Assembly (NCBI GenBank): GCA_963821845.1
Contig: CAWGFI010000006.1
Location: 65,478-129,477 of the forward strand
Origin: an uncultured delta proteobacterium
Lineage (GTDB): Bacteria; Desulfobacterota; Desulfarculia; JACQYL01; CAWGVV01
DNA length: 64,000 bases
Direction of reading: 5' to 3'
Shown here: positions 2,977-43,787 of the stretch, piece after piece
How the letters are laid out: the number at the start of each line of letters is the position of its first letter
How positions within the stretch are numbered: the stretch's first letter is position 1
Translations under genes and position numbers: made by a program
The notes under the pieces: model-generated
Databases searched by the model: none
What the model was told of the DNA's origin: nothing
The model's input: the letters and a program-made list of their open reading frames with translations, nothing else

Positions 2977-3846
2977 TCAGGAGGGTATGGAAGTCCGTCG
3001 CAGGTAACCTCTTTCTATGGCGGCGTAATCCAGGCGCATGGTGGCCAGATCGTCCAGGCATCCGTTTTGACGCAGCGCCGAGGAACGGGAAGCGGTCACC
3101 TTCAGATAAAAATCGCACGCGTCGCACGCTTCCGCCCACGCGTTTTCCAGCGGGTCGGCGACGATCCGTTCCATGGTGGTTTCCGTTTTCCCGCACCAGG
3201 GGCAGTATGTAGCCTCGACCGTCCATTGCTGATCGCAGAGCGAGCAACAGAGCGTTTTTTCGCCGGTCGTCCCTTCGCTGTAGGCCAGGTGAGGCCGCGA
3301 CCCGCACACCGGGCACAGCCCCTGTCGCCATGAACTGAAATTCCGTCCGTCCGCCTCCCTGCGCAGCAAGGGCTGGAGATGGGTTTTGAGAGCGGAATGC
3401 GTCAGGAATATGGGCAGACCCACGTCGATGTTCAGATCGGACGAAAGACGTTCGATCCTTTCAAAATCTCCACGCGCCACCCGTGTCCAAACATCGGCGT
3501 CCCGGAAGTAGCCTTCCCGGAAAAGTTTTTCGATCGCGCCAAGGCCGTCCCGGAGCAGCGGGCGTTTCCCGGGTTTTAAATCCAGAAACGTTTCCAGGGT
3601 AGCCGCGACGGCTTGCATATCGAGCGCTATTTCCGCCGCCTCGCGCAAGGGGAGGGATTCCGGCTCCCCGGCGGCGCTCGGTTCATGAGTGCGCGAAGCC
3701 GCATCATCGCTCGCGGACATAAGCTCGTCGCGTTTCCGCAGGACGAGGACATAATATTCCATAATGGGGCGCGGAATTTTCGTCTGGTCGACGATTTTCG
3801 CCACGAGCGCCCCCCAATTGACGGGTTCACCGGCGGTTATTTCCAT
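2977..3846 (-). CDS. fdhE: FdhE-like protein (formate dehydrogenase accessory protein family, four CxxC pairs)
   Basis: ORF track 2977..3948. C-terminal CPVCGSRP...CCSLCDQQW...CPWCGK...CDACDFYLK resembles the FdhE cysteine pattern. Start is probably the ATG at 3846 (MEITAGE). Confidence 0.6.
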   Translation of the reverse strand: MEITAGEPVNWGALVAKIVDQTKIPRPIMEYYVLVLRKRDELMSASDDAASRTHEPSAAGEPESLPLREAAEIALDMQAVAATLETFLDLKPGKRPLLRDGLGAIEKLFREGYFRDADVWTRVARGDFERIERLSSDLNIDVGLPIFLTHSALKTHLQPLLRREADGRNFSSWRQGLCPVCGSRPHLAYSEGTTGEKTLCCSLCDQQWTVEATYCPWCGKTETTMERIVADPLENAWAEACDACDFYLKVTASRSSALRQNGCLDDLATMRLDYAAIERGYLRRTSIPS

Positions 3847-12371: not shown

Positions 12372-13655
12372 TCACTTTACCGTGAAGCTGTAAGCGTCGC
12401 TATAGGGGCCGTAGCCGTTGGCGTTATAGGTTTTGACCCACATTTTGTAAGAGCCTTTTGCGAGTTTCGTGGAGAGCGAGCATAACACATCATGTTCCAC
12501 CGCGCTCGCTCTCACCCAATCATTGAAAGCAGCGCTACCGCTTGAATTGTAGATCAACACATAATACCAGTCGCTTCCCGGCGTCGCTATCCAGTCCAGA
12601 ATTGCCGGCGCGCCACTCGTAGAGTTTTGGGCGTCAACAATAATCGGTTTTCCGGGACAAGCGTCCTTGTTTACCTCAAAGTTCAAGGGAGCGCTCCAAG
12701 GGCCGTACTCGACTCCATTATATGTTAAAATACGCACGGAATACGAGCCTTTAGCCAAATTCAGCAGCGGATCAACTGCGCAGACGCTGCCGTCGATATC
12801 CACTTCGGAAACCCGATACCAATCGGAAAAATCGGAACCCTTGGTATTATTAATCCACACCTTGTACCAGGTAACGTTGGGGACCGTCTGCCACGCGATC
12901 ACCGGGGAACCATCCGCGCAATTTCCGGAAGGAGCCAGCACGGTAGTCGCCACCGGAGCGGTCGAAAGCGTAATCACCTGGAACTGCATGACCGTGCTCA
13001 GCGAAGAGACGGCGATTCCCTGATACCAGACTTGCGCCCGAAAGGTGTATGTTCCCTGGGGCAGATTGGCGGGTATGGACCACAGGTATGAAACCCAGTC
13101 GGTATTCCCGGCCGCAAGCCCTTTGATGTAGGAGGAGCCGGCCCATTCGGCTTTATCCATGCCGGGTCCGTCGACCTGGAACCATACTTTCGTTTCCGAT
13201 GGTATCGTTGCCGCTCCCGTATTTTTCACCTTGGCCCACAGCTTCACGTTGACGCCCGGATTGATCTGGTCGTTCTGATAAAGAGACATGATCTGCGTTT
13301 GGACTTCGGGAGCGTAGGGGTCTTCGATATAGGCGGAGACTTCTTCGGAATAATCACTGACATCGCCATATATTGAGTACGCGGTAATGGCGAAATAGTA
13401 CCGTTTGTTCATACTGCTTATGGGAATGTCCCAACTGTTCGTGTTTCCGACGTCCGCATGGTTGGTGTACACGCGTGAAGCCGTGCCCCAGTGGACTTCA
13501 TAACCGGCGAGTTCGGAGTGGCCCACGGGGTCCCATGATAATTCCGCCGTGACCGCCCCGCAAATGGAAGGCAGAAGCAGCAGAAAAACAAATACGATTT
13601 TTACCAGCAAGCTTTTACGGAACAGACCGTAAGGCGTAGTATGCAAAGCGTCCAT
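12372..13655 (-). CDS. secreted protein: FN3-like, CARDB-like and two W/Y-rich repeats
   Basis: 427-aa ORF with a hydrophobic N-terminus. FN3-like AGYEVHWGT...YYFAITAY. CARDB-like VKLWAKVKNTGAATIP...GTYTFRAQV. Two repeats homologous to those of ORF 1041..2825 (TWYKVWINN..DWY; DWYYVLIYN..DWV). Confidence 0.8.
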   Translation of the reverse strand: MDALHTTPYGLFRKSLLVKIVFVFLLLLPSICGAVTAELSWDPVGHSELAGYEVHWGTASRVYTNHADVGNTNSWDIPISSMNKRYYFAITAYSIYGDVSDYSEEVSAYIEDPYAPEVQTQIMSLYQNDQINPGVNVKLWAKVKNTGAATIPSETKVWFQVDGPGMDKAEWAGSSYIKGLAAGNTDWVSYLWSIPANLPQGTYTFRAQVWYQGIAVSSLSTVMQFQVITLSTAPVATTVLAPSGNCADGSPVIAWQTVPNVTWYKVWINNTKGSDFSDWYRVSEVDIDGSVCAVDPLLNLAKGSYSVRILTYNGVEYGPWSAPLNFEVNKDACPGKPIIVDAQNSTSGAPAILDWIATPGSDWYYVLIYNSSGSAAFNDWVRASAVEHDVLCSLSTKLAKGSYKMWVKTYNANGYGPYSDAYSFTVK

Positions 13656-26969: not shown

Positions 26970-27071
26970 ATGGCGCTCAAAATTCCAACACACCCCATGT
27001 TTGACCCTCACCAAAGAACGTCCGCCGCGTTGCGGAACGGCTACTATTTTTGCTGGTGGCGCTCGTCTTGA
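26970..27071 (+). CDS. leader peptide 1 (33 aa), trpL-like: MALKIPTHPMFDPHQRTSAALRNGYYFCWWRSS*
   Basis: Own translation; too short for the ORF track. Tandem TGG TGG at 27054-27059 is preceded by TAC TAT TTT. The stop lies 3 codons after WW, as in E. coli TrpL (...GWWRTS). A terminator lies ~50 nt downstream. No clear RBS. Confidence 0.55.
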   Translation: MALKIPTHPMFDPHQRTSAALRNGYYFCWWRSS

Positions 27072-27123
27072 CGGTGGGGGCTCATCCGGTTTACGCCAGT
27101 TAGAAATAGTTGAGATGATACTG

Positions 27124-27160
27124 CCCGCCCTCGAAAGAAGGCGGGTTTTTTTTTGCTTTT
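27124..27160 (+). terminator. intrinsic terminator / attenuator 1
   Basis: CCCGCCCTC-GAAA-GAAGGCGGG hairpin (27124-27145, GNRA-type loop) followed by T9GCT6. Confidence 0.7.
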
Positions 27161-27176
27161 TTGAGGAGTAACAACC

Positions 27177-27260
27177 ATGAACACGACCGTACGCCGCTTT
27201 TTTTGTTTTTGGTATTGGCGCTTCTTCTTTCGTCAACCGGCGGTGAGGTCTGTGCTATGA
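27177..27260 (+). CDS. leader peptide 2 (27 aa), aromatic-rich: MNTTVRRFFCFWYWRFFFRQPAVRSVL*
   Basis: Own translation. GGAG RBS at 27165-27168, 8 nt before the ATG. Nine aromatic codons out of eleven at 27198-27230 (6 Phe, 2 Trp, 1 Tyr). Confidence 0.7.
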   Translation: MNTTVRRFFCFWYWRFFFRQPAVRSVL

Positions 27261-27291
27261 ATATCTGAATACTCTTTGAAGCAGCGCATAC

Positions 27292-27330
27292 AGCCCACCG
27301 CCGGACCCGGCGATGGGCTTTTTTCATTTT
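27292..27330 (+). terminator. intrinsic terminator / attenuator 2 immediately upstream of trpE
   Basis: GCCCACCGCCGG (27293-27304) pairs with CCGGCGATGGGC (27307-27318) with one mismatch, followed by TTTTTTCATTTTT. CCGGCGGTG inside leader 2 (27237-27245) is the exact complement of the terminator 5' arm segment CACCGCCGG (27296-27304), giving a candidate antiterminator. Confidence 0.7.
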
Positions 27331-27341
27331 TGGAGGAGCGT

Positions 27342-28727: not shown

Positions 28728-29793
28728 TACAGGAAGCCATCGCCAAGGTCGTGGAAGGAACCGACTTGTCCGAACTGGAAATGATGGCAGGTCATGGATT
28801 TCATCACCGAAGGCCGGGCCACGCCCGCCCAGATCGGCGCCCTGCTCATCGGCTTGCGCATGAAGGGCGAAACCGTGGACGAAATCGCCGGGGCGGCCCG
28901 AGTCATGCGCAATAAAAGTGTTCGCATTCCCGTGGGAGAATCCAACGTTTCCATGGATCGCGACGAAATAAACATGGACCGGGAAACCATCGTCGACACC
29001 TGCGGGACCGGCGGGGACGGGACCAGGACCTTCAACGTCTCCACCACCACCGCCTTTGTGGCCGCCGGCGCGGGTCTGAAAGTGGCCAAGCACGGCAACC
29101 GGTCGGTGTCCAGCCAGTGCGGCAGCGCGGACGTGATCGAGGCCCTGGGAATCCGAATCGATCTGAAGCCTGAACAGGTGGGCGCGTGCATCGACGAGGT
29201 GGGCATCGGCTTTTTGTACGCGCCGCTTCTGCACGGGGCCATGCGCCACGTCATCGGGCCGCGCAAGGAAATCGGTCTGCGCACGATTTTCAACATCCTG
29301 GGGCCGCTGACCAACCCGGCCGGGCGCCACGGTGCAGGTGCTGGGCGTCTACCGGGAGGATCTCACCGACGTCATGGCCCGGACGCTTCAACGGCTGGGC
29401 TGCCGCAGCGCGTTCGTGGTTCACGGTGAGGGGAGCTACGACGAAATCAGCGTGACCGGCCCCACCAGGATAACCCGGCTTTGCGGCGATGACGTAACCT
29501 CGCTGTCGGTGACGCCCGAAGAACTGGGGCTGCGGAGGGCCAAGCCCGAAGAGATCCTGGGCGGAGACGCCGCAGAAAACGCGGCCATTGTCAGGTCCGT
29601 CCTGTCGGGCCGCCATGACGCGCGCCGGGACATGGTGCTCATGAACGCCGCCGCCGCGCTGGTGGCCGCCGGAAAGGCCGACGGCCTGCCGCAGGGCGTG
29701 GAAATGGCGGCGGAAGCCATCGACAGCGGTCGAGCCGCTCAAAAACTGAACGATCTGGCGGAACTGAGCGTCCGCTTCAGTCAGGCCGCCTAG
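28724..29793 (+). pseudogene. trpD: anthranilate phosphoribosyltransferase, interrupted by 2 frame shifts as assembled
   Basis: Three collinear frame segments: [22 protein letters not shown] | [19 protein letters not shown]...[15 protein letters not shown]...[10 protein letters not shown] | [11 protein letters not shown]...MNAAAAL. Shifts (+1 each) are near 28790 and 29331. The ATG overlaps the trpE stop (ATGA). Confidence 0.8.
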
Positions 29794-29819
29794 CGGCTCA
29801 CCGGAAGAGAAGCGGATTC

Positions 29820-30610
29820 ATGAGCATACTGGACAAAATCATAGAAACCAAAAAGCAGGAAATCGCGGCGCTGAAGGCCACAAGCGATCTCGCCGACATG
29901 AGCCGTCAGGCCTTGAAGCGGCCTCTGGGCCGCGGCCTGGAAGCGGCTTTGCGAAACAACGGCCGAACGCCGGTCATCGCCGAAATCAAACGGTCCTCGC
30001 CTTCGGCGGGCGTGTTGAATGGACAGGTGAACGTACGAATCCCTGGCCACAGCCTACCAGGGCGCGGGCGCGGCGGCGGTGTCGGCGCTTACCGACCGGA
30101 CCTTATTTCAAGGGAAGCCTGGAAGACGCCCGCAAGGCTCGGGCCGTCCTGAATATTCCTGTTCTGCGCAAGGATTTCATCATCGACCCCATCCAGCTCT
30201 ATGAAACCAAGCTGGCGGGGTTGGACGCGGTCCTGCTCATCGTGGCCGCCCTGGAGCCGCCGCTTCTTCGGGACTTGTACGCCCGGGCGCGCGATCTCGG
30301 CCTTTCCGTGCTGGTGGAGGTTCACCGGGAAGAGGAGCTGGACGCCGCTCTGGCGCTGAATCCGTCCATCATCGGCGTCAATAACCGCAATCTCTCCGAC
30401 ATGACCGTATCGCTTGAAACCTGCGTAAGGCTGCGGCCTCTGATTCCCGCCAACGTTTTGGTGGTGGGCGAAAGCGGCGTGAACACGCCCAATGACGTTT
30501 CCCGCTTGCTGAGCGCCGGGATAAACGGCTTTCTGGTGGGATCGGCGCTCATGAAATCAAACGATCCGGGCGGTCTGCTCAAATCGCTGGTCGAGGCAAG
30601 GAGCGCGTAG
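29820..30610 (+). pseudogene. trpC: indole-3-glycerol phosphate synthase, interrupted by 2 frame shifts as assembled
   Basis: Segments MSILDKIIETKKQEI...VIAEIKRSSPSAGVL.. | YESLATAYQGAGAAAVSALTDRTLFQG | SLEDARKARAVLNIPVLRKDFIIDPIQ...VGVNNRNL. Shifts are near 30033 and 30115. Confidence 0.8.
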
Positions 30611-31176
30611 CCATGGTGCGGGTCAAGATCTGCGGAATCACCAACATCGAAGACGCCCAAGCCGCGGTGAACGCCGGAGCCGACGCTTTGGGATTTGTTT
30701 TCGCCCCCAGCCCCCGGCGGATAACCCCGGAACAGGCGCGGGAAATCATCAAGGGATTGCCTCCGATGGTTTCCACGGTGGGCGTATTCGTGAACGAAGA
30801 ACCAAGCCGGATCGTGGAAATCCGGAACTACTGCGGGCTGAACGCCGTTCAGCTTCACGGCGACGAGACCGGAAAGCGTCGTGGACGCGCTCGAAGGCGC
30901 GGTCATCAAGGCGGCGCGGGTGCGGCCGTCATCGATCATATCCGAAAACGACTATCCGACGGCCACCTTGTTGCTGGACACCTATCATCCGGTGAATGCG
31001 GGTGGGACCGGCGAAACCTTTGACTGGCAGCTGGCCGTCCGCGTAGCCGCCCGCCGCAGGATCATCCTGGCTGGCGGCCTCGACCCGGACAACGTGGCCC
31101 AGGCCGTGACGGCCGTCAGACCGTATCGCGGTGGACGTATCCAGCGGCGTGGAGAATCAACCTGGGAGAAAAGATC

Positions 31177-32406
<1,230 letters not shown>

Positions 32407-32410
<4 letters not shown>

Positions 32411-33230
32411 AATCAGCCATTCAGCAAGCATTCGCAGCGCGGCCGCTCAGAGGCGGAGCGCCTTTATGCCCTTTTTCACCGGCGGATATCCGGACGCCCA
32501 AACGTGTTTGGATTTTCTAAGGCACTGGCCGAGGCCGGTGCGGACGTGATCGAAGTCGGGCTGCCGTTTTCCGATCCGTTGGCGGACGGCCCGATCATCC
32601 AGAAATCCAGTCACGCGCCCTGGACATCGGGCATGACCCCGCCCAAGGTTTTGGAGCTGATCGCCGAGGCCCGTAAGAAGGCCGACGTGCCGGTGGTGCT
32701 CATGACCTATGTACAATCCCATGTTCCGCCTGGGGTGGAGACATTTTGCCGCCGAGGCGCGGGAAGCGGGCGTGTCCGGCGTCATCGTTCCGGATCTGCC
32801 TCTGGAAGAGGCCGATGAATGGTGGAAGAGGCGGCCTGCGGCACGGCATGGACACCATCTTCATGATTGCGCCCACCACGCCGGCGGAGCGGCTTGCAAA
32901 GAGGTCATCCGGTCCAGCCGGGGGTTTGTGTACGCCGTGGCCCGGACCGGCGTCACCGGTTCGGAAACGTCGGTTTCCGAGGAATTGTCCACGTACCGTT
33001 TCGGCCATCAAAGCCGATCGCCGATCTGCCGGTGGCCGTGGGTTTCGGAGTATCCAGGCCGGAAGACGCCCGGCTCCTGGCCGGATCTGGCCGACGGAGT
33101 GATCGTGGGCAGTGCGCTTATTGAAAACGGTTATGGAACAGGACGGCCAGGAAGCGCGAGTCGCTGCGGCCGCCCGTCTGGCCGCGAGACCTCGCCGGAT
33201 CGAATCTGGCCAAGGAGGACAATCCAATGA
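32407..33230 (+). pseudogene. trpA: tryptophan synthase alpha chain, at least 10 frame disruptions as assembled
   Basis: ATG at 32407. Segments MKSAIQQAF | [16 protein letters not shown] | [28 protein letters not shown] | YNPMFRLGWRHFAAEAREAGVSGVIVPDLPLEEADE | HGMDTIFMIAPTTPAERLA | RGFVYAVARTGVTGSETS | VSAIKA | DLPVAVGFGVSRPEDARLLAGS | ADGVIVGSALI. The stop at 33228-33230 overlaps the trpG ATG (ATGA). Confidence 0.75.
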
Positions 33231-33840
33231 TTCTCATCATCGATAATTACGATTCCTTTACGTTCAACCTGGCTCACGCGTTGGGCGAGCTAGGCCGGGA
33301 AATCACGGTCAAACGCAATGATGCGGTCTCGCCCCCGGAGATCGACATGGCTGAACCCCGAGGCCATCGTCATTTCGCCGGGTCCGGGACGGCCGGACGA
33401 TTCGGGCGTGAGCCTCGAAGTCATCGAGAAGTTTGCCGGCAAAATCCCCATCCTGGGGGTCTGCCTGGGGCATCAGTGCATTGGCCGAGGTGTTCGGAGG
33501 CCAGGTGGTTCGGGCCAAGGAGCCGGTTCATGGGAAGACCTCGGAGGTCTTTCACGACGGCCGGACCATGTATCGGGGCGTCCGAAATCCGTTCAAGGCC
33601 ACGCGGTACCATTCCCTGATGGCGCCCGAGGACGACTTGCCGGCCAGTCTGGAAGTATCGGCCTGGACTTTGGACGGTGTGGTCATGGGCGTGCGGGCCG
33701 TGGGCCTGCCTGTGGAAGGGGTCCAGTTTCACCCCGAATCCATCGCCACCCCGCTGGGTAAATCCATCCTCCGGAATTTCCTGGAGCACTACGTCGTGCG
33801 GCCGACAGGCGGCCTGAGGGAAGGAAGCGCGTCATGGTAA
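33227..33840 (+). pseudogene. trpG: anthranilate synthase component II (glutamine amidotransferase), 2 frame shifts as assembled
   Basis: AAGGAGGA RBS. Segments [23 protein letters not shown]...EIDM | [21 protein letters not shown]...[12 protein letters not shown] | [19 protein letters not shown]...YHSL...GVQFHPESI. Shifts are near 33350 and 33483. Confidence 0.8.
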
Positions 33841-34879
33841 TTTTGATGACCGAAAAGTGCCGGAAAAAAGAGGTGGCGGATGTCCTGTCCGCCATCAAAG
33901 CACGAGGGTTCGAGCCGCGCATGATCACGTCCCAGACCGCGCGTGGTGCTCGGGCGTGGTGGAAGAAATGAAGCCGCCGGCAGATCGAAGAACTGACCGA
34001 GGCCCTGTCCAAGCTGCCGGAGGTGGAGGGCATCGAACTGTTCGGCCTCCTGCAAACTGGCGGGCCGGACGTTCCGTGTGGAAAACACGCTGATCCCGTG
34101 CAGGCGCACGAACGCTCGGGGACGGCGGCATTACGGATCATGGCCGGACCGTGCGCCGTGGAATCCCGGGAGGCCATGCATTAGAGATCGCCCGATTCAT
34201 CAAGGCGGCAGGAGCGGATATGCTGCGCGGCGGCGCGTTCAAGCCGCGGACGTCGCCGTATTCCTTCCGGGGCCTGGGCCAGGAAGGGCTGGAGCATCTG
34301 GCCGAGGCCCGCAGGAAACCGGGCTGCCCATCATCACCGAGGTGCTGACCCCGGAGGAATCGCCCTGGTGGCCGGATACGCGGACATTCTCCAGATCGGG
34401 ACCCGCAACATGCAGAATTTCGCGCTTCTGGAGGCGGCGGGCGAAACTGGACAAGCCGGTAATTCTCAAAAGGGGATGATGGCCACGGTGAAGGAACTGC
34501 TGCTGTCGCGCGGAATACATCCTGGCGCAAGGGCAATCCGCAGGTGATTCTCTGCGAGCGGGGCATCCGCACGTTTGAAAAGGAAACGCGAAATACACTG
34601 GACATATCGGCGGTGCCTCTGCTAAAGCAACTGTCCCACCTGCCGGTGGTGGTGGACCCCAGCCACGCCGTGGGAAAGCGCGGAACTGGTGCCCGCCATG
34701 GCTCTCGCGGCCGTGGCGGCCGGCGCGGACGGTCTGATGATCGAAGTGCATCCCGACCCGGACGAGGCCCTTTCCGACGGCCGGCAAAGTCTGACCTTCG
34801 ACGCCTTTGCGCGCTCATGCGTAATATCGAAAGCGTGGCGGCGACGGTAAAGAGCATCTACAAAGGAAATGATCGATGA
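33834..34879 (+). pseudogene. aroF: DAHP synthase (type I-beta) with N-terminal ferredoxin-like regulatory domain, about 15 frame disruptions as assembled
   Basis: Segments MVILMTEKCRKKEVADVLSAIKARGFEP | [16 protein letters not shown] | [14 protein letters not shown] | [45 protein letters not shown] | [15 protein letters not shown] | [25 protein letters not shown] | [11 protein letters not shown] | [43 protein letters not shown] | [37 protein letters not shown]. Domain order is as in the Thermotoga-type enzyme. Confidence 0.75.
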
Positions 34880-38507: not shown

Positions 38508-39563
38508 CGTTTTTGGACGGTATTTCAGAATAGCCACCTTCGGGGAGTCGCACGGCGCGGCGGTCGGCGTGATCGTGGAAGGCGTTCCGGCCGAATATCG
38601 AGCTTGATCGGGATTTCATCCAGAGCGAACTCGACCGCAGACGCCCCGGCGTATCCCAATACGTGACCGCGCGGCGCGAAACCGACGAGGTGGAGATTCT
38701 CTCCGGGGTCGTGGACGGTAAAACCCTGGGAACGCCCATCTCGCTCCTGGTACGCAACAAGGACGTCCGGTCCCAGGATTACAAAGCCATCGGGGAACTC
38801 TTCCGGCCCGGCCACGCCGATTACGCCTATTTTAAAAAATACGGCGTTCCGCCGCAGCCCGGAGGCGGAAGATCGTCAGGACGCGAAACCGTGGGCCGGG
38901 TGGCCGCGAGGCGCGGTAGCCAAGGCGTTTTTGAAGCCGTTCGCCATCGAGACGCAGGCCTACACGCTGGCCATCGGCGGAATTGAAGCGGAAAAGGTTG
39001 ACCTCGATTACGTCGAACACAACCCCCTGAGGTTCGCCGATCCCGACCGTTTCGATCAGGCGGCCGGTCTGGTGGACGCGGCGCGGGAAGACGGCGACTC
39101 CATCGGCGGCGTCATCGAAGTCGTCGTCACCGGGGTTCCCGCCGGCCTGGGCGATCCGGTCTTCGACAAGCTCGACGCGCTGCTGGGCGCGGCCATGTTT
39201 TCCATCGGCGCGGTGAAAGGCGTGGAGTTCGGCGCCGGGTTCCGGCTGGCCGGAATGCGCGGCTCCCGGGCCAACGATCCCCTGTCGCCGGAAGGGTTCC
39301 TCGGGAACAACGCGGGCGGGGTTCTGGGCGGTATTTCCAACGGCGAACCCATTGTCATGCGACTGGCGGTCAAACCGACCTCATCCATCGCCAAACCCCA
39401 AAACACGATCGACCTGACCGGCCGGACGCGGACCATCCAGGTGCAAGGGCGCCATGATCCCTGCCTGTGCCCGCGTGTGTGCCCGGTCGCCGAAGCCATG
39501 GCGGCCTTGGTTATAGCCGACGCGTTTCTGGAACAACGCGCCGCCACGGGAAGCAATCCATGA
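38502..39563 (+). pseudogene. aroC: chorismate synthase, 2 frame shifts in the first 410 nt as assembled
   Basis: [31 protein letters not shown] | [19 protein letters not shown]...[27 protein letters not shown] | [10 protein letters not shown]... then ORF 38931..39563 (GGVLGGISNGEPI...RHDPC). Shifts are near 38595 and 38905. Confidence 0.8.
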
Positions 39564-40345: not shown

Positions 40346-40410
40346 ATGCCAACTAATTTTGCCTGAAACGTTTTATTTTTTAATAACTTAAGGTTTTTGG
40401 GAGTGGGTTT

Positions 40411-40443
40411 GGGAGAGACCCTTTTTCCAAAAAGGGTCCTCCC
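40411..40443. repeat. palindromic REP-like module GGGAG.GACCCTTTTT..AAAAAGGGTCCTCCC
   Basis: Near-perfect hairpin. A sibling copy GGGAGGAATCCTTTTTGAAAAAGGGTTCCTCCC lies at 63562-63594. Confidence 0.7.
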
Positions 40444-40492
40444 ATTTCAACATCTATTTGGATAATTTTTCAGCGGCCCGGACAAAAAAACC

Positions 40493-40521
40493 TTGACAAG
40501 CTCGGCGACTTGCTGTTTACT
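40493..40521 (+). promoter_or_regulatory. candidate sigma70-type promoter for leader 3 / second DAHP synthase-pheA-tyrA
   Basis: TTGACA at 40493-40498, a 17-nt spacer ending in TGT, then TTTACT at 40516-40521 (extended -10-like). Confidence 0.45.
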
Positions 40522-40575
40522 GCATCTATAAGATCGACAAAAATCAGGATTACACTTATTCAGAGACAGACGGGT

Positions 40576-40656
40576 ATGAAACTTTTTAGCAACGGTTTTT
40601 ATTATTATTTTTATTATTTTACCGCCTACCCGTGCGCTCTGGAGGATGCCGTCTAA
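40576..40656 (+). CDS. leader peptide 3 (26 aa), Phe/Tyr-rich: MKLFSNGFYYYFYYFTAYPCALEDAV*
   Basis: Own translation; too short for the ORF track. Eight consecutive aromatic codons (TTT TAT TAT TAT TTT TAT TAT TTT) at 40597-40620, followed by terminator hairpins. Confidence 0.65.
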   Translation: MKLFSNGFYYYFYYFTAYPCALEDAV

Positions 40657-40682
40657 GACTGACCAAAAATAGAAACGAATCC

Positions 40683-40724
40683 GGGCCATGGGTAGAAAGA
40701 GTAAACCCATGGCCCTTCTTTTTT
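40683..40724 (+). terminator. intrinsic terminator / attenuator 3a
   Basis: GGGCCATGGGT (40683-40693) pairs perfectly with ACCCATGGCCC (40705-40715), followed by TTCTTTTTT. TACCCGTG inside leader 3 (40627-40634) can pair with CATGGGTA (40687-40694), giving a candidate antiterminator. Confidence 0.7.
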
Positions 40725-40760
40725 AAAGGCCGTGGGGTAAACCTCACGGCCTTTTCGTTT
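40725..40760 (+). terminator. second hairpin with U-tract (attenuator 3b)
   Basis: AAAGGCCGTG (40725-40734) pairs with CACGGCCTTT (40745-40754), followed by TCGTTTT. It lies directly upstream of the GGAGG RBS of the DAHP synthase gene. Confidence 0.55.
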
Positions 40761-40781
40761 TCAACCAGGAGGAAAAAGAAA

Positions 40782-41677
40782 ATGGACATGAATACGGAAT
40801 CAGTCCCCATCCCAGCCATGGGAACGAACGCGAGCCCCGCCATCACACAGCCTAAGCTCCCGCCCTACAAGCTGGCCAGCAGGGAAACCCGCTTCGCTCC
40901 CACCATCGTTCGAGGTCGGTTCGGTTCAAATTGGAGGCCCGTCCTTTTCGGTCATCGCCGGTCCCTGTTCCGTTGAAAGCGAAGAACAGCTTTTGACGAC
41001 CGCGCAATGCGTGAAAGAGGCGGGCGCTTGCATTCTGCGCGGCGGGGCGTTCAAACCCAGAAGCAGCCCGTACAGCTTCCAGGGGCTGGAGGAAGAAGGG
41101 TTGAAACTCCTGCAAAAGGCGCGGGAACTTACCGATTTGCCCATCGTAACCGAAGTCATGGACTCCGATGACATCGCGCTGGTGGAGTCATACGCCGACA
41201 TCTTGCAGGTGGGTTCGCGCAACAGCCAGAATTTTTCGCTCCTGAAGAAACTGGGCAAGGTCAAGAAACCGGTCCTGCTCAAACGCGGCTTGATGACCAC
41301 CATCAAGGAATTCCTCATGTCCGCCGAATACATCCTCGCTTCCGGCAACGATCAGGTGATCATGTGCGAACGCGGCATCAGAACCTTTGAGACCGCGACC
41401 CGCAACACGCTGGACCTCAGCGCCATCCCCGTTCTCAAGGAACGGACCCACTTGCCGGTTATCGTCGATCCCAGCCACGCCGTAGGCGATTACCGGTATG
41501 TCGGCGCCCCTGGCCAAGGCCGCTCTGGCGGTCGGCGCGGACGGGTTGATGATCGAAGTGCATCATTGCCCGGAAAACGCGCTCTGCGATGGCGATCAGT
41601 CGCTAACGCCCGCGATGTTCCAGACCATGATGGATGAACTGCGCGCCATGGCCACATTTATCGGACGGCCCATGTAG
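40782..41677 (+). pseudogene. aroF: DAHP synthase (type I-beta, second paralog), 2 frame shifts as assembled
   Basis: GGAGG RBS at 40768. Segments [14 protein letters not shown]...RFAPTIV | [28 protein letters not shown].. then ORF 40993 ([18 protein letters not shown]...[25 protein letters not shown]...[14 protein letters not shown]) | [34 protein letters not shown]...FIGRPM*. Shifts (+1 each) are near 40910 and 41500. Confidence 0.8.
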
Positions 41678-41742: not shown

Positions 41743-42930
41743 ATGGAACAGCAGGCCATTGAATCATTGCGAAACATGATCAATTCCGTGGACGAGGAAA
41801 TCATTCGGCTACTCGGAAAACGATCCGCGTACGCCACTGAAATCGGTCGACAAAAACAAAAATCCGGATTGCCCGTTTTTGACGGGGGGCGTGAACGAAG
41901 TTTGCTGGAACGGGTCAGGAACCTGGACGCCGGGTGTCTCCAGCCTTCGGCGGTGGAAACCATTTTCACCGAAATCATATCCGCTTGCCGGGCGGTTCAG
42001 CAAAACCTGAAAATTTCCTATCTGGGGCCGGAAGCCACCTTTACCCATCTGGCCGCGCAGCGGTATTTCGGACGGTCCACGGATTACAAGCCGTGCGGGG
42101 CCATAGCGGACGTGTTTAAGGATGTGGAGAGCGGGCAGTGCGATTTCGGCGTCGCGCCGGTGGAAAATTCCAACGAAGGCGCCGTGACAGCCACTTTGGA
42201 CCGCCTCGCCCTGAGCGACGCGCGAATCACCGGAGAAATATTCTGTCCCATTTCTCACGCGCTGATGTCCAAGGAAGCATCTTTGGACCGAATCGAACGT
42301 ATCTATTCACACCCCCAGGCGTTGAGCCAGTGTCTGAACTGGCTGGCTGACAGACTGCCCGGACGCGCTCTGCTGCAAGCGGACAGCACGGCGGCGGCGG
42401 CGAAGATCGCCGGCGGAGAAGCCGGGGCGGCGGCCGTGGGAAGCGCCATGCTGGCCGAACGGTACGGACTTAATACCCTGGAACAGGACATTCAGGACCG
42501 GCGGCCCAACATCACCCGTTTTTTCATCCTCGGACGAGGAGAAGTCCAAAGAACCGGCAATGATAAAACGTCCATCGTGTTCGGGGCGGCTCATGAGCCC
42601 GGCTCGCTATTCAAGGCGCTCGCGCCGTTCGCCCGCAATGGGATCAACCTGACCAGAATCGAATCCCGGCCGTCCAAATCCGCTCCCTGGGAATATCTGT
42701 TCTTTCTGGATCTCGAAGGTCATGAAAGCGACGACCATCTGCGGGAAGCGCTTGACGAGGCGGGGCGCGAAACCATGCATCTGAAGCTGTTGGGTTCCTA
42801 CCCCAAGGGCGACCTTGGGAAACAGGATACGCACGAAGCCCGCCAATCGCTGGAACTTTGGAACGCATTGGGACAAATCAACCCTGGGATTCAAGCGGTC
42901 GTCAACTCCGGCCCAGGCGTCCGCTCATAA
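41743..42930 (+). CDS. pheA: bifunctional chorismate mutase / prephenate dehydratase (P-protein) with ACT domain
   Basis: ORF track 41707..42930. ATG at 41743. CM region LRNMINSVDEEIIRLLGKRS. PDT region ISYLGPEATFTHLAA...APVENSNEGAV. ACT region TSIVF...PGSLFKAL..F...GINLTRIESRP. Intact; the C-terminal tail is longer than I expect. Confidence 0.85.
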   Translation: MEQQAIESLRNMINSVDEEIIRLLGKRSAYATEIGRQKQKSGLPVFDGGRERSLLERVRNLDAGCLQPSAVETIFTEIISACRAVQQNLKISYLGPEATFTHLAAQRYFGRSTDYKPCGAIADVFKDVESGQCDFGVAPVENSNEGAVTATLDRLALSDARITGEIFCPISHALMSKEASLDRIERIYSHPQALSQCLNWLADRLPGRALLQADSTAAAAKIAGGEAGAAAVGSAMLAERYGLNTLEQDIQDRRPNITRFFILGRGEVQRTGNDKTSIVFGAAHEPGSLFKALAPFARNGINLTRIESRPSKSAPWEYLFFLDLEGHESDDHLREALDEAGRETMHLKLLGSYPKGDLGKQDTHEARQSLELWNALGQINPGIQAVVNSGPGVRS

Positions 42931-42941
42931 GTGATCGAACC

Positions 42942-43787
42942 ATGAGGATTACCACCATGCTGAAACCGAGGAGTATCGCCGTCGTAGGAGGCCATGGCAA
43001 AATGGGCTCCCTGATGGCACGAATATTTAGCGGCGCCGGGTTTCCGGTGGAAACTCTGGACAAGAAAACGGGGAACGTGGATTGGAGCGCTATCGCCCGC
43101 CACGACGTTACCATCATCGCGGCCCCGATCCCGGCCATGGATGACGTGATCAAGGAAATCGGCCCGTTCACGCCCGAAGACGGCGTGGTTATCGACATCG
43201 GGTCGCTGAAACAATCGCCGGTTAGCCACATGCTGGCTCATTGCCGAGGCGAAGTGATCGGCAGCCATCCACTGTTCGGCCCCGCCGTCGAGGGCCTCAA
43301 CGATCAGGTCGTGTTCGCCTGCCCCGCCCGCTCCATCAGATGGATGAGCTGGTTTCGTTCATTCTGGGAAGAACAGGGCGCGCGGGTGGTGGACATCGAT
43401 CCCGAGCGCCACGACAAACTCATGGCCACCGTGCAGGCGCTCCGCCATTTTTATCTTTTCAGTTTCGGCCACAGCCTAGTTCGGCTGGGATTCGATCTCT
43501 CGACCGACCTGCCGCTCGCGGGACCCTGGTTCGGTGATCTGGTTTCCATGCTGCGCCACCATTTGCGCCAAGGCCCCGCCATCTATAACGATCTCGCCAA
43601 GGCCAACCCCCACACCGAAGGCATGCTCCGCCAGGTCATGGAGTCGGTCAACGTCATGCGCGACGCGTATCAGTCGGACGACCCCGCTCTTTTTAGCAAC
43701 GCCATGGAAGAAATCACCCGATATTTCGAACCAACGCCACCGATTGATTTCGCGTCCCCGGAAGAAGGCGCCGTTCTCGGCTTATAA
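42942..43787 (+). CDS. tyrA: prephenate dehydrogenase
   Basis: ORF track 42858..43787. ATG at 42942. Rossmann IAVVGGHGKMGSLMA. GSHPLFGP and DKLMATVQALRHF motifs. Intact. Confidence 0.8.
   Translation: MRITTMLKPRSIAVVGGHGKMGSLMARIFSGAGFPVETLDKKTGNVDWSAIARHDVTIIAAPIPAMDDVIKEIGPFTPEDGVVIDIGSLKQSPVSHMLAHCRGEVIGSHPLFGPAVEGLNDQVVFACPARSIRWMSWFRSFWEEQGARVVDIDPERHDKLMATVQALRHFYLFSFGHSLVRLGFDLSTDLPLAGPWFGDLVSMLRHHLRQGPAIYNDLAKANPHTEGMLRQVMESVNVMRDAYQSDDPALFSNAMEEITRYFEPTPPIDFASPEEGAVLGL

Follow-up and report, generated by a model that had tools for sequence, protein, structure and literature searches.

A predicted tyrosine- and phenylalanine-sensing leader-peptide attenuator with two serial terminators upstream of aroF-pheA-tyrA in an uncultured deltaproteobacterium

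Introduction

On a 64,000-nt stretch of contig CAWGFI010000006.1 from an uncultured delta proteobacterium (hereafter the window, meaning the whole stretch that was analysed), the genes aroF, pheA and tyrA follow one another behind a leader region at positions 40,493 to 40,781, and the products to which these downstream genes lead are exactly phenylalanine (Phe) and tyrosine (Tyr). The question raised by the locus is whether the supply of these two amino acids is read within the leader itself. Judged from sequence and comparative evidence, the leader is very probably a ribosome-mediated (leader-peptide) transcription attenuator that senses Tyr and Phe and controls aroF-pheA-tyrA. An earlier reading of the bare sequence, here called the original prediction, had proposed that the Phe/Tyr branch possesses an attenuator of its own, an interpretation that now draws support from related loci and from covariation, and from which we infer the response to Phe and Tyr supply. 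The mechanism itself will come as no surprise to the specialist. Noteworthy are the predominance of Tyr in the codon run, the serial arrangement of two terminators, which may well be coupled, and an invariant, frame-independent GGAGGA(U) sequence at 40641-40647.

A conserved leader reading frame with a run of tyrosine and phenylalanine codons

The leader open reading frame (ORF) consists of 26 codons and a stop (40576-40656, forward strand, as for all features of the locus given below), beginning with an ATG at 40576 and ending with a TAA at 40654-40656, and its product would be MKLFSNGFYYYFYYFTAYPCALEDAV. As had been described, the ORF includes eight consecutive Phe/Tyr codons, which can be read directly from the sequence at 40597-40620 in the order TTT TAT TAT TAT TTT TAT TAT TTT. 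This run, the putative site of ribosome stalling, is dominated by Tyr (5 TAT codons versus 3 TTT codons for Phe), and no other stretch of the 64-kb window, in any of its six frames, has more than four Phe/Tyr codons in succession. Codons ending in U make up 80 of the 96 Tyr/Phe codons (83%) in the 11 leaders now available, compared to approximately 43% in the genes of the window, a bias that may keep the stall region unstructured or make its decoding slower. A second frame through the same nucleotides, which would give the Ile-rich string VFIIIFIIL, was considered and rejected, because a TGA at 40577-40579 lies just upstream with no start codon after it, and because Ile is not kept in that frame in relatives whose run has TAC codons.

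Ten distinct related loci (L082, L097, L098, L101, L104, L105, L106, L107, L109 and L018), with aroF genes 68-89% identical to that of the window, were assembled for comparison, the window providing the eleventh sequence. The original prediction would have been undermined had the mini-ORF or the hairpins that follow it been absent from orthologous loci, and the opposite was found: all ten loci display a single layout, consisting of a TTGACA element, a Tyr/Phe-rich mini-ORF, two hairpins and the genes aroF-pheA-tyrA. A cluster of end-product codons ahead of the biosynthetic operon is therefore found not only in the window but likewise in each of the 10 related loci.

These loci came from searches of different reach. 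[quoted passage not shown] The L082 leader is homologous to that of the window and agrees with it in length and frame, and inside the run the two sequences differ by T<->A exchanges only, both at the second codon position, such that Tyr/Phe identity is kept. A protein search followed by contig look-up added eight homologs, 68-79% identical, for which the DNA was obtained; a Tyr/Phe mini-ORF and two hairpins were present in 8/8. The corresponding leader ORFs are MGDFRFSGYYYFYFYTPVYPCARGGFEQ in L097, MSMRNRYFSYYYYFPYRFIRLRPEEENS in L098, MRFRFSGYYYLYGAVCSCARGG in L101, ..RRFSSYYYYYFSYVCPWARGG in L104, ..RRFSGYYYFYFSTVCPCGRGG in L105, MNAGFFGYCFYYYGQVCLWARGGSKS in L106, MGFRFSSYYFSYYYFAPVRPVAPGGN in L107 and ..GRFSGYRGYFYFYFFTTDLPGAQER in L109. 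Among GTDB species representatives, a search with pheA returned distant relatives only, with a best match of 46% identity, and in most of these pheA loci aroF lies downstream of pheA and has no leader there. L018 (HGW-Deltaproteobacteria-15) alone shares the layout, in which TTGACA, the ORF MGRRIFNSRFWYYYFFYGAPVCPLRRF and two hairpins are followed by aroF. Several of the homologs are labelled by their sources as Thermodesulfobacteriota, Deltaproteobacteria or Syntrophales metagenome-assembled genomes (MAGs). A BLASTN search of a plasmid collection with the leader region gave no match, and an apparent aromatic mini-ORF in L085, L089 and L090 was discarded, since there a terminator hairpin had been read as codons and no leader is present.

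Across the family the order of the run varies and its composition is kept, as in FYYYFYYF, YYFYFYYF, YYYFYFY, YYYYYF, YYYYF and others, and the spacing between the last codon of the run and hairpin 1 stays within 57-70 nt. Because Tyr/Phe composition persists while order shifts, the codons appear to be regulatory, rather than part of a structural peptide or of an AT-rich spacer. A conserved and aromatic-rich ORF could in principle encode a small hydrophobic or aromatic peptide with a function of its own, downstream of which the hairpins merely end the transcript. Such a peptide would not be expected to tolerate the free variation seen in the order of the run and in the N- and C-terminal residues, nor would it account for a conserved 3' part that is maintained at the RNA level and read in different frames, or for the position of the ORF, always directly before aroF-pheA-tyrA, and the probability left to a functional peptide is close to negligible.

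The conserved 3' part of the leader ORF contains the GGAGGA(U) sequence, which resembles a Shine-Dalgarno sequence and lies at 40641-40647, near the 3' end of the reading frame. Its column in the alignment is shared by L018, L082, L097, L098, L101 and L104-L107, L109 having GGAGAGG, and the GAGG core is invariant in 11/11 sequences. The frame in which it is read differs by locus, being CTG GAG GAT in the window and GGA GGA TGA in L104, and it is thus as RNA that the sequence is conserved. Its pairing partner is a pyrimidine stretch, variable among the loci, within the upstream segment termed A below.

Two covarying terminator hairpins precede aroF

Two hairpins with U-tracts, the first of them a perfect 11-bp stem and the second situated directly before the ribosome-binding site of aroF, had been pointed out in the original prediction, and both are present and are confirmed by folding. 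Terminator 1 (segments 1:2, 40683-40724) is formed by pairing of 40683-40693 with 40705-40715, giving an 11-bp perfect stem of -21.3 kcal/mol with an 11-nt loop, and is followed by the U-tract UUCUUUUUU (40716-40724). Terminator 2 (segments 3:4, 40725-40764) has a stem at 40725-40754 with 13 bp, including one G-U pair, a 4-nt loop and a stability of -22.5 kcal/mol, and is followed by UCGUUUUC. Two G+C-rich hairpins with U-tracts, which have the form of intrinsic terminators, thus separate the leader ORF from aroF. The fold of 40560-40790 has a z score of -4.08, with 0/200 shuffles folding equally well. A terminator scan lists hairpin 2 independently and misses hairpin 1 because the 11-nt loop of the latter exceeds the limit of the scan.

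Covariation was assessed in an alignment (A2) of the 11 distinct sequences that starts where the codon run ends and continues past hairpin 2; the pairing frequencies given here and below refer to its cells. Taken together, the two hairpins are paired in 93% of cells, with 10 pairs changed on both sides, a degree of covariation matched by 0/500 column shuffles, and controls in which the partners were slid are paired in 24-58%. Hairpin 1 is paired in 98% of cells and hairpin 2 in 88%, each with five pairs changed on both sides. The same two stems are predicted independently by RNAalifold, and a GGCC(A/G)UGGG motif is common to both.

Mutually exclusive helices link the leader to the terminators

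An attenuator of this type requires a helix that excludes the terminator and is favoured by a stalled ribosome, and the original prediction had indicated such a helix in the complementarity of TACCCGTG within the leader (40627-40634) to CATGGGTA in the first terminator arm (40687-40694). This pairing exists, and it forms the core of a longer helix, B:1, that joins segment B (40626-40643), at the end of which lies the overlapping GGAGGAU (40641-40647), to segment 1 (40680-40695). Segment 1 comprises 3 nt upstream of hairpin 1, the whole of its 5' arm and 2 loop bases, and it would serve as the 3' strand of the antiterminator. The B:1 helix has 16 bp and two bulges, and at -25.7 kcal/mol it is more stable than hairpin 1 (-21.3 kcal/mol), with which it competes.

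B:1 is paired in 83% of cells and covaries in part: three of its pairs have changed on both sides, two of them involving columns of the hairpin-1 loop, which hairpin 1 itself does not constrain. Compared to dinucleotide shuffles, the duplex energy is exceptional in most sequences, being equalled by at most 2 of 300 shuffles in 7/11 and by at most 14 of 300 in 2 more. Constrained folding of the leader region, a check asked for in advance, came out in favour of B:1: when the ribosome footprint is masked and the RNA ends at 40704 or 40741, the minimum free energy (MFE) structure is B:1, or B:1 together with a second helix, 2:3. The antiterminator is thus supported computationally.

Segment B has a second partner in segment A (40559-40578), the 5' strand of a predicted anti-antiterminator, which contains the start codon of the leader. 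In the MFE fold, 40559-40578 pairs with 40625-40643 at -20.4 kcal/mol, burying the start codon, so that an anti-antiterminator is likewise found by computation. The A:B duplex energy beats dinucleotide shuffles (at most 15 of 300 doing as well) in 9/11 sequences, and segment A aligns too poorly for covariation to be assessed column by column.

The second helix, 2:3, is a possible second antiterminator in which CCCAUGGCC (40706-40714), within the 3' arm of hairpin 1, pairs with GGCCGUGGG (40728-40736), within the 5' arm of hairpin 2 (together 40706-40736). It comprises 9 bp with an energy of -15.7 kcal/mol. B:1 and 2:3 together are paired in 84% of cells, versus 27-47% in controls whose partners were displaced by 1-3 columns.

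A probable promoter separates the leader from the upstream aro genes

The leader has a probable promoter of its own at 40493-40521, with a -35 element TTGACA (40493-40498), a 17-nt spacer and a weak -10 element TTTACT (40516-40521). The TTGACA hexamer is invariant in the 11/11 related sequences, 58-88 nt upstream of the leader start. The original prediction had recognized the TTGACA-17-TTTACT arrangement, and as far as the sequence is concerned it stands as described, approximately 54 nt before the ATG. A consensus promoter scan does not list it, because the -10 element lacks the usual A at position 2. A further promoter-like arrangement inside the leader ORF, ATGAAA-18-TATTAT, was dismissed as being at chance level (1 found, 0.9 expected).

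The genes aroA, aroE, aroK-aroB, aroC and aroQ precede the leader on the same strand. Between aroQ and the leader promoter there is a hairpin with a T-run at 40405-40445 (the GGGAGAGACCC...GGGTCCTCCC region), which is likely the terminator of the upstream aroA-aroE-aroKB-aroC-aroQ unit. Since this terminator-like hairpin follows the upstream aro genes, the leader would open a separate transcription unit.

This arrangement bears on a simpler explanation of the locus, in which the two hairpins before aroF are plain terminators or insulators that close either the aro operon upstream or a small RNA, and the mini-ORF is a chance reading frame in an AT-rich spacer. Both hairpins do look like ordinary intrinsic terminators, and the Shine-Dalgarno sequence of the leader is weak. 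Yet the upstream operon has a hairpin of its own at 40405-40445, located ahead of the conserved TTGACA, and the in-frame start and Tyr/Phe run are found in 11/11 loci, including L098, L105 and L106, which have a different gene upstream; the element is kept whether aroQ or an unrelated gene precedes it. Changes within the run preserve Tyr/Phe identity, and B:1 covaries. The simpler explanation is accordingly rated very improbable.

A model for attenuation, and the evidence against it

The transcription start, the stalling of the ribosome, termination at the U-tracts and a 2:3 relay are the parts of the attenuator model that we infer. Transcription would begin approximately 45 nt upstream of the 26-codon leader ORF. 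If no ribosome loads, A would pair with B, the 1:2 and 3:4 hairpins would form, and RNA polymerase would terminate at one of the two U-tracts. With Tyr and Phe plentiful, a ribosome would reach the stop codon at 40654-40656, where it would cover or block the 3' half of B and separate B from segment 1, again allowing both terminators to form. Under a shortage of Tyr-tRNA or Phe-tRNA, translation would instead stall within 40597-40620, the ribosome being held there with a footprint of roughly 40582-40634 that varies with the codon, and in this position it would lie between A and B and leave most of B free. Free B could then capture segment 1 before segment 2 is transcribed, blocking terminator 1, and segment 2, once freed, may pair with segment 3 and hinder terminator 2, such that the polymerase enters aroF. 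The terminated state would thus consist of A:B, 1:2 and 3:4 and the read-through state of B:1 and 2:3, and by way of 2:3 one stalled ribosome could disable both terminators, which would not then act independently of each other.

Several findings weigh against this model. The -10 hexamer is poor, varies across the relatives and has no A at position 2, and the leader ATG at 40576 is preceded by a weak Shine-Dalgarno sequence. An in-frame ATT at 40558 has an AGGA 8 nt upstream (40546-40560), an arrangement conserved in L082, and it might serve as a non-canonical leader start in place of ATG 40576, making the start codon uncertain. The energy of B:1 is no better than that of dinucleotide shuffles in two of the 11 sequences, L098 and L018. 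In the full-length RNA the terminated fold is far more stable, and read-through would therefore have to depend on kinetics. The invariant GGAGGA(U) is left unexplained by the attenuator model. Finally, compared with a relative that is 84% identical, the first gene of the supposed operon carries one extra base at ~40909 and another at ~41502, although an ortholog is intact. To these must be added the behaviour of 2:3, in which changes are one-sided, with none on both sides, and whose complementarity could be a by-product of the GGCC(A/G)UGGG motif shared by both hairpins.

The last of these points gives rise to an alternative within the attenuator model, in which the control that the leader exerts through B:1 extends to terminator 1 alone, hairpin 2 is constitutive or separately controlled and lowers basal read-through, and 2:3 is a side effect of duplication. 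Besides the one-sided changes, it has in its favour that the shared motif makes segments 2 and 3 complementary automatically, that in stability 2:3 (-15.7 kcal/mol) falls far short of 3:4 (-22.5 kcal/mol), and that the U-tract of hairpin 2 is poor or absent in L018 and L109. On the other hand, the 11 divergent sequences retain 2:3 pairing in 92% of cells, most of the compensated changes of hairpin 2 that fall in the 2:3 zone are transitions that still pair with segment 2, and the MFE structure of 40621-40741 is B:1 plus 2:3. A strong constitutive terminator placed right before the operon would, moreover, waste the regulated read-through. Control of terminator 1 alone is a serious contender that falls somewhat short of an even chance. 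Given that the element is an attenuator, the case for a 2:3 relay that couples the two terminators is evenly balanced.

The aroF-pheA-tyrA genes and the frameshifts

The first gene of the operon has the ribosome-binding site AGGAGG at 40767-40772 and the start codon ATG at 40782-40784 (together 40767-40784), the same start being used by the intact ortholog in L082. The gene, aroF (40782-41677), encodes a type I-beta DAHP synthase without an N-terminal regulatory domain, homologs of which carry PF00793. It is followed by an intact pheA (41743-42930), encoding a chorismate mutase / prephenate dehydratase (P-protein) with the Pfam domains CM_2, PDT and ACT on an identical protein, and by an intact tyrA (42942-43787), encoding a prephenate dehydrogenase, whose same-position orthologs carry PDH_N and PDH_C. 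An ORF listed at 40632-40976, which covers the hairpins and which the original prediction had called spurious, is indeed an upstream extension of the frame of the aroF N-terminus, the real start being ATG 40782, and in the annotation it is to be replaced by the leader ORF and an aroF start at 40782.

When the two insertions in aroF are corrected, the reconstructed protein is 89% identical to a single intact frame in L082/L083 over its full length (residues 1-297). The frameshifts are probably assembly errors rather than signs of gene decay or pseudogenes. The leader ORF is unaffected by them, because it has the same length and frame in L082. Single-base frameshifts, probably of the same origin, also occur in the other DAHP synthase gene of the window and in trpD, trpC, trpF, trpB, trpA, trpG and aroC, the affected zones being ~28794-33800, 33900-34870 and 38663-39563 in addition to the aroF sites. 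The start of L001, an Illumina-derived contig from this organism, coincides exactly with 41503.

Comparison with known systems of control

The closest functional parallels are leader-peptide attenuators described in other bacteria. The pheL-pheA leader of E. coli (Rfam Phe_leader) and trpL likewise have a leader ORF rich in codons for the product, a terminator, and exclusive helices that are chosen by the position of the ribosome, and pheA is downstream both of pheL and of the leader described here. There is no homology of sequence or structure to either E. coli leader (Rfam gives no match at E<=10), and the codon run is dominated by Tyr, whereas that of pheL consists of Phe only. Also unlike in the E. 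coli leaders, the stall site here lies upstream of all paired segments, not inside segment 1; there are two terminators in place of one; and the operon opens with a DAHP synthase gene and includes tyrA.

The his attenuator of Salmonella and E. coli has six segments, with A:B, C:D and E:F formed in the terminated state and B:C and D:E in the read-through state. The likeness to the leader described here, a cascade flipped by one ribosome position, is one of architecture and not of homology. The C:D hairpin of the his leader is no terminator, whereas the middle hairpin here, 1:2, has a U-tract of its own in most members of the family, and the amino acid and the lineage differ as well.

In Corynebacterium glutamicum, the aroR leader (Phe-Tyr-Phe; Neshat et al. 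2014) precedes aroF, and read-through is reported to respond to Phe and not to Tyr (PMC11802643, PMC4046766). It resembles the present element in being a leader-peptide attenuator that has mixed Phe and Tyr codons and precedes a DAHP synthase gene, a likeness of function only (PMC11802643); the present leader differs from it in having eight consecutive, mostly Tyr codons and two terminators, in its phylum and in the operon downstream. The uORFC-13-1 motif of Acholeplasma is a predicted upstream ORF with Phe codons and a terminator stem before aroF (PMC8632094). Compared by its description, it belongs to another phylum, has a U-run coding for at least one Phe and a single terminator, and is itself a prediction only (PMC8632094). 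[quoted passage not shown] As here, the conservation lies 5' of a type I-beta DAHP synthase gene in a deltaproteobacterial group; the Geobacteraceae element, whose nature the paper does not describe, may or may not be related (PMC2700814).

Searches for known RNA families bear on a third explanation, in which control is exerted in trans by an uncharged tRNA (T-box), by a protein that binds RNA (TRAP or PyrR, for example), or by a riboswitch metabolite. Aromatic amino acid operons of other phyla often use T-boxes or TRAP, and a factor of this kind could bind at the invariant GGAGGA(U). Rfam, however, recognized no family in the whole window at the gathering score, T-box and Phe_leader included, and at E<=10 the region 40350-40850 gave chance-level matches to miRNA and sRNA families and none to a leader family or T-box. 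The GAG/UAG triplet repeats typical of TRAP are not visible in the sequence, and in place of a conserved aptamer-like domain it is the run of codons, together with the helices that exclude one another, that is conserved. Control in trans is therefore held to be highly unlikely, though less so than the plain-terminator explanation.

For the attenuator, the mechanism is classical, and the leader family is absent from Rfam and from the literature searched, in which no paper on this Tyr/Phe leader family was found; Rodionov et al. 2004, on delta-proteobacteria, leaves attenuators and aromatic amino acids unmentioned. A well-supported family new to Rfam, comprising 11 distinct sequences plus related Trp and mixed-codon versions, would offer an account of how entry into aromatic synthesis is controlled in uncultured and poorly studied deltaproteobacteria-like anaerobes. 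It also provides a test case of whether Tyr codons can drive attenuation, and of whether two successive terminators can be under the command of a single leader. In DAHP synthases of the Thermotoga type, an N-terminal domain mediates feedback inhibition. Because the DAHP synthase of this clade is without that N-terminal feedback domain, attenuation may be the main brake on the pathway.

Related leaders with other codons

A covariance model (R1) built from A2, with which the window and 93 loci were scanned, matched leaders beyond the Tyr/Phe family. In L018 (region 12860-13074), a two-terminator scaffold follows the Trp-codon leader NSIENKLTNWRWWRNSGEGFVHR, at 12882-12956, and stands before the next gene. 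In L032, a second two-terminator scaffold at 150-560 on the minus strand accompanies the Trp-codon leader MEQSSLIRTVNSPRNWWWRISDGEV before a trpE-like gene. Since the same scaffold occurs with other codons, Trp or mixed, it seems to have been reused with the sensing codons swapped. A broader proposal is correspondingly tentative and stops short of an even chance, namely that one scaffold, made up of B, two GGCC(A/G)UGGG terminators and GGAGGA, extends across the aromatic regulon in Thermodesulfobacteriota-like lineages, with swapped codons and a double-terminator relay, and that it possibly includes the first clearly Tyr-responsive leader peptide.

The window itself has two further leader ORFs, in tandem at 26998-27340 directly before trpE (ATG 27343), each followed by a terminator. 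Leader 1 (MFDPHQRTSAALRNGYYFCWWRSS) lies at 26998-27072, with its terminator at ~27123-27156, and leader 2 (MNTTVRRFFCFWYWRFFFRQPAVRSVL) at 27178-27261, with its terminator at ~27292-27335. R1 matches neither of the two, which therefore appear to be built on a different scaffold.

Weaker matches to R1 correspond to single-terminator versions with mixed Phe/Tyr/Trp leaders (..YYFYFWWR..PPMV) before aroK and aroA', an example being MAQQNGRNYYFYFWWRSNPPMV with the single terminator GGCCGUGGG...CCCACGGCC. Mixed leaders of this kind lie at 608-740 and 2396-2560 in L032, at 141-280 and 2068-2180 in L037, and at 3024-3150 and 4864-4990 in L078. The mixed-leader loci are found in Desulfatiglandales and Desulfobacteraceae MAGs, and aroA' is an ADH synthase-like gene of the alternative dehydroquinate route.

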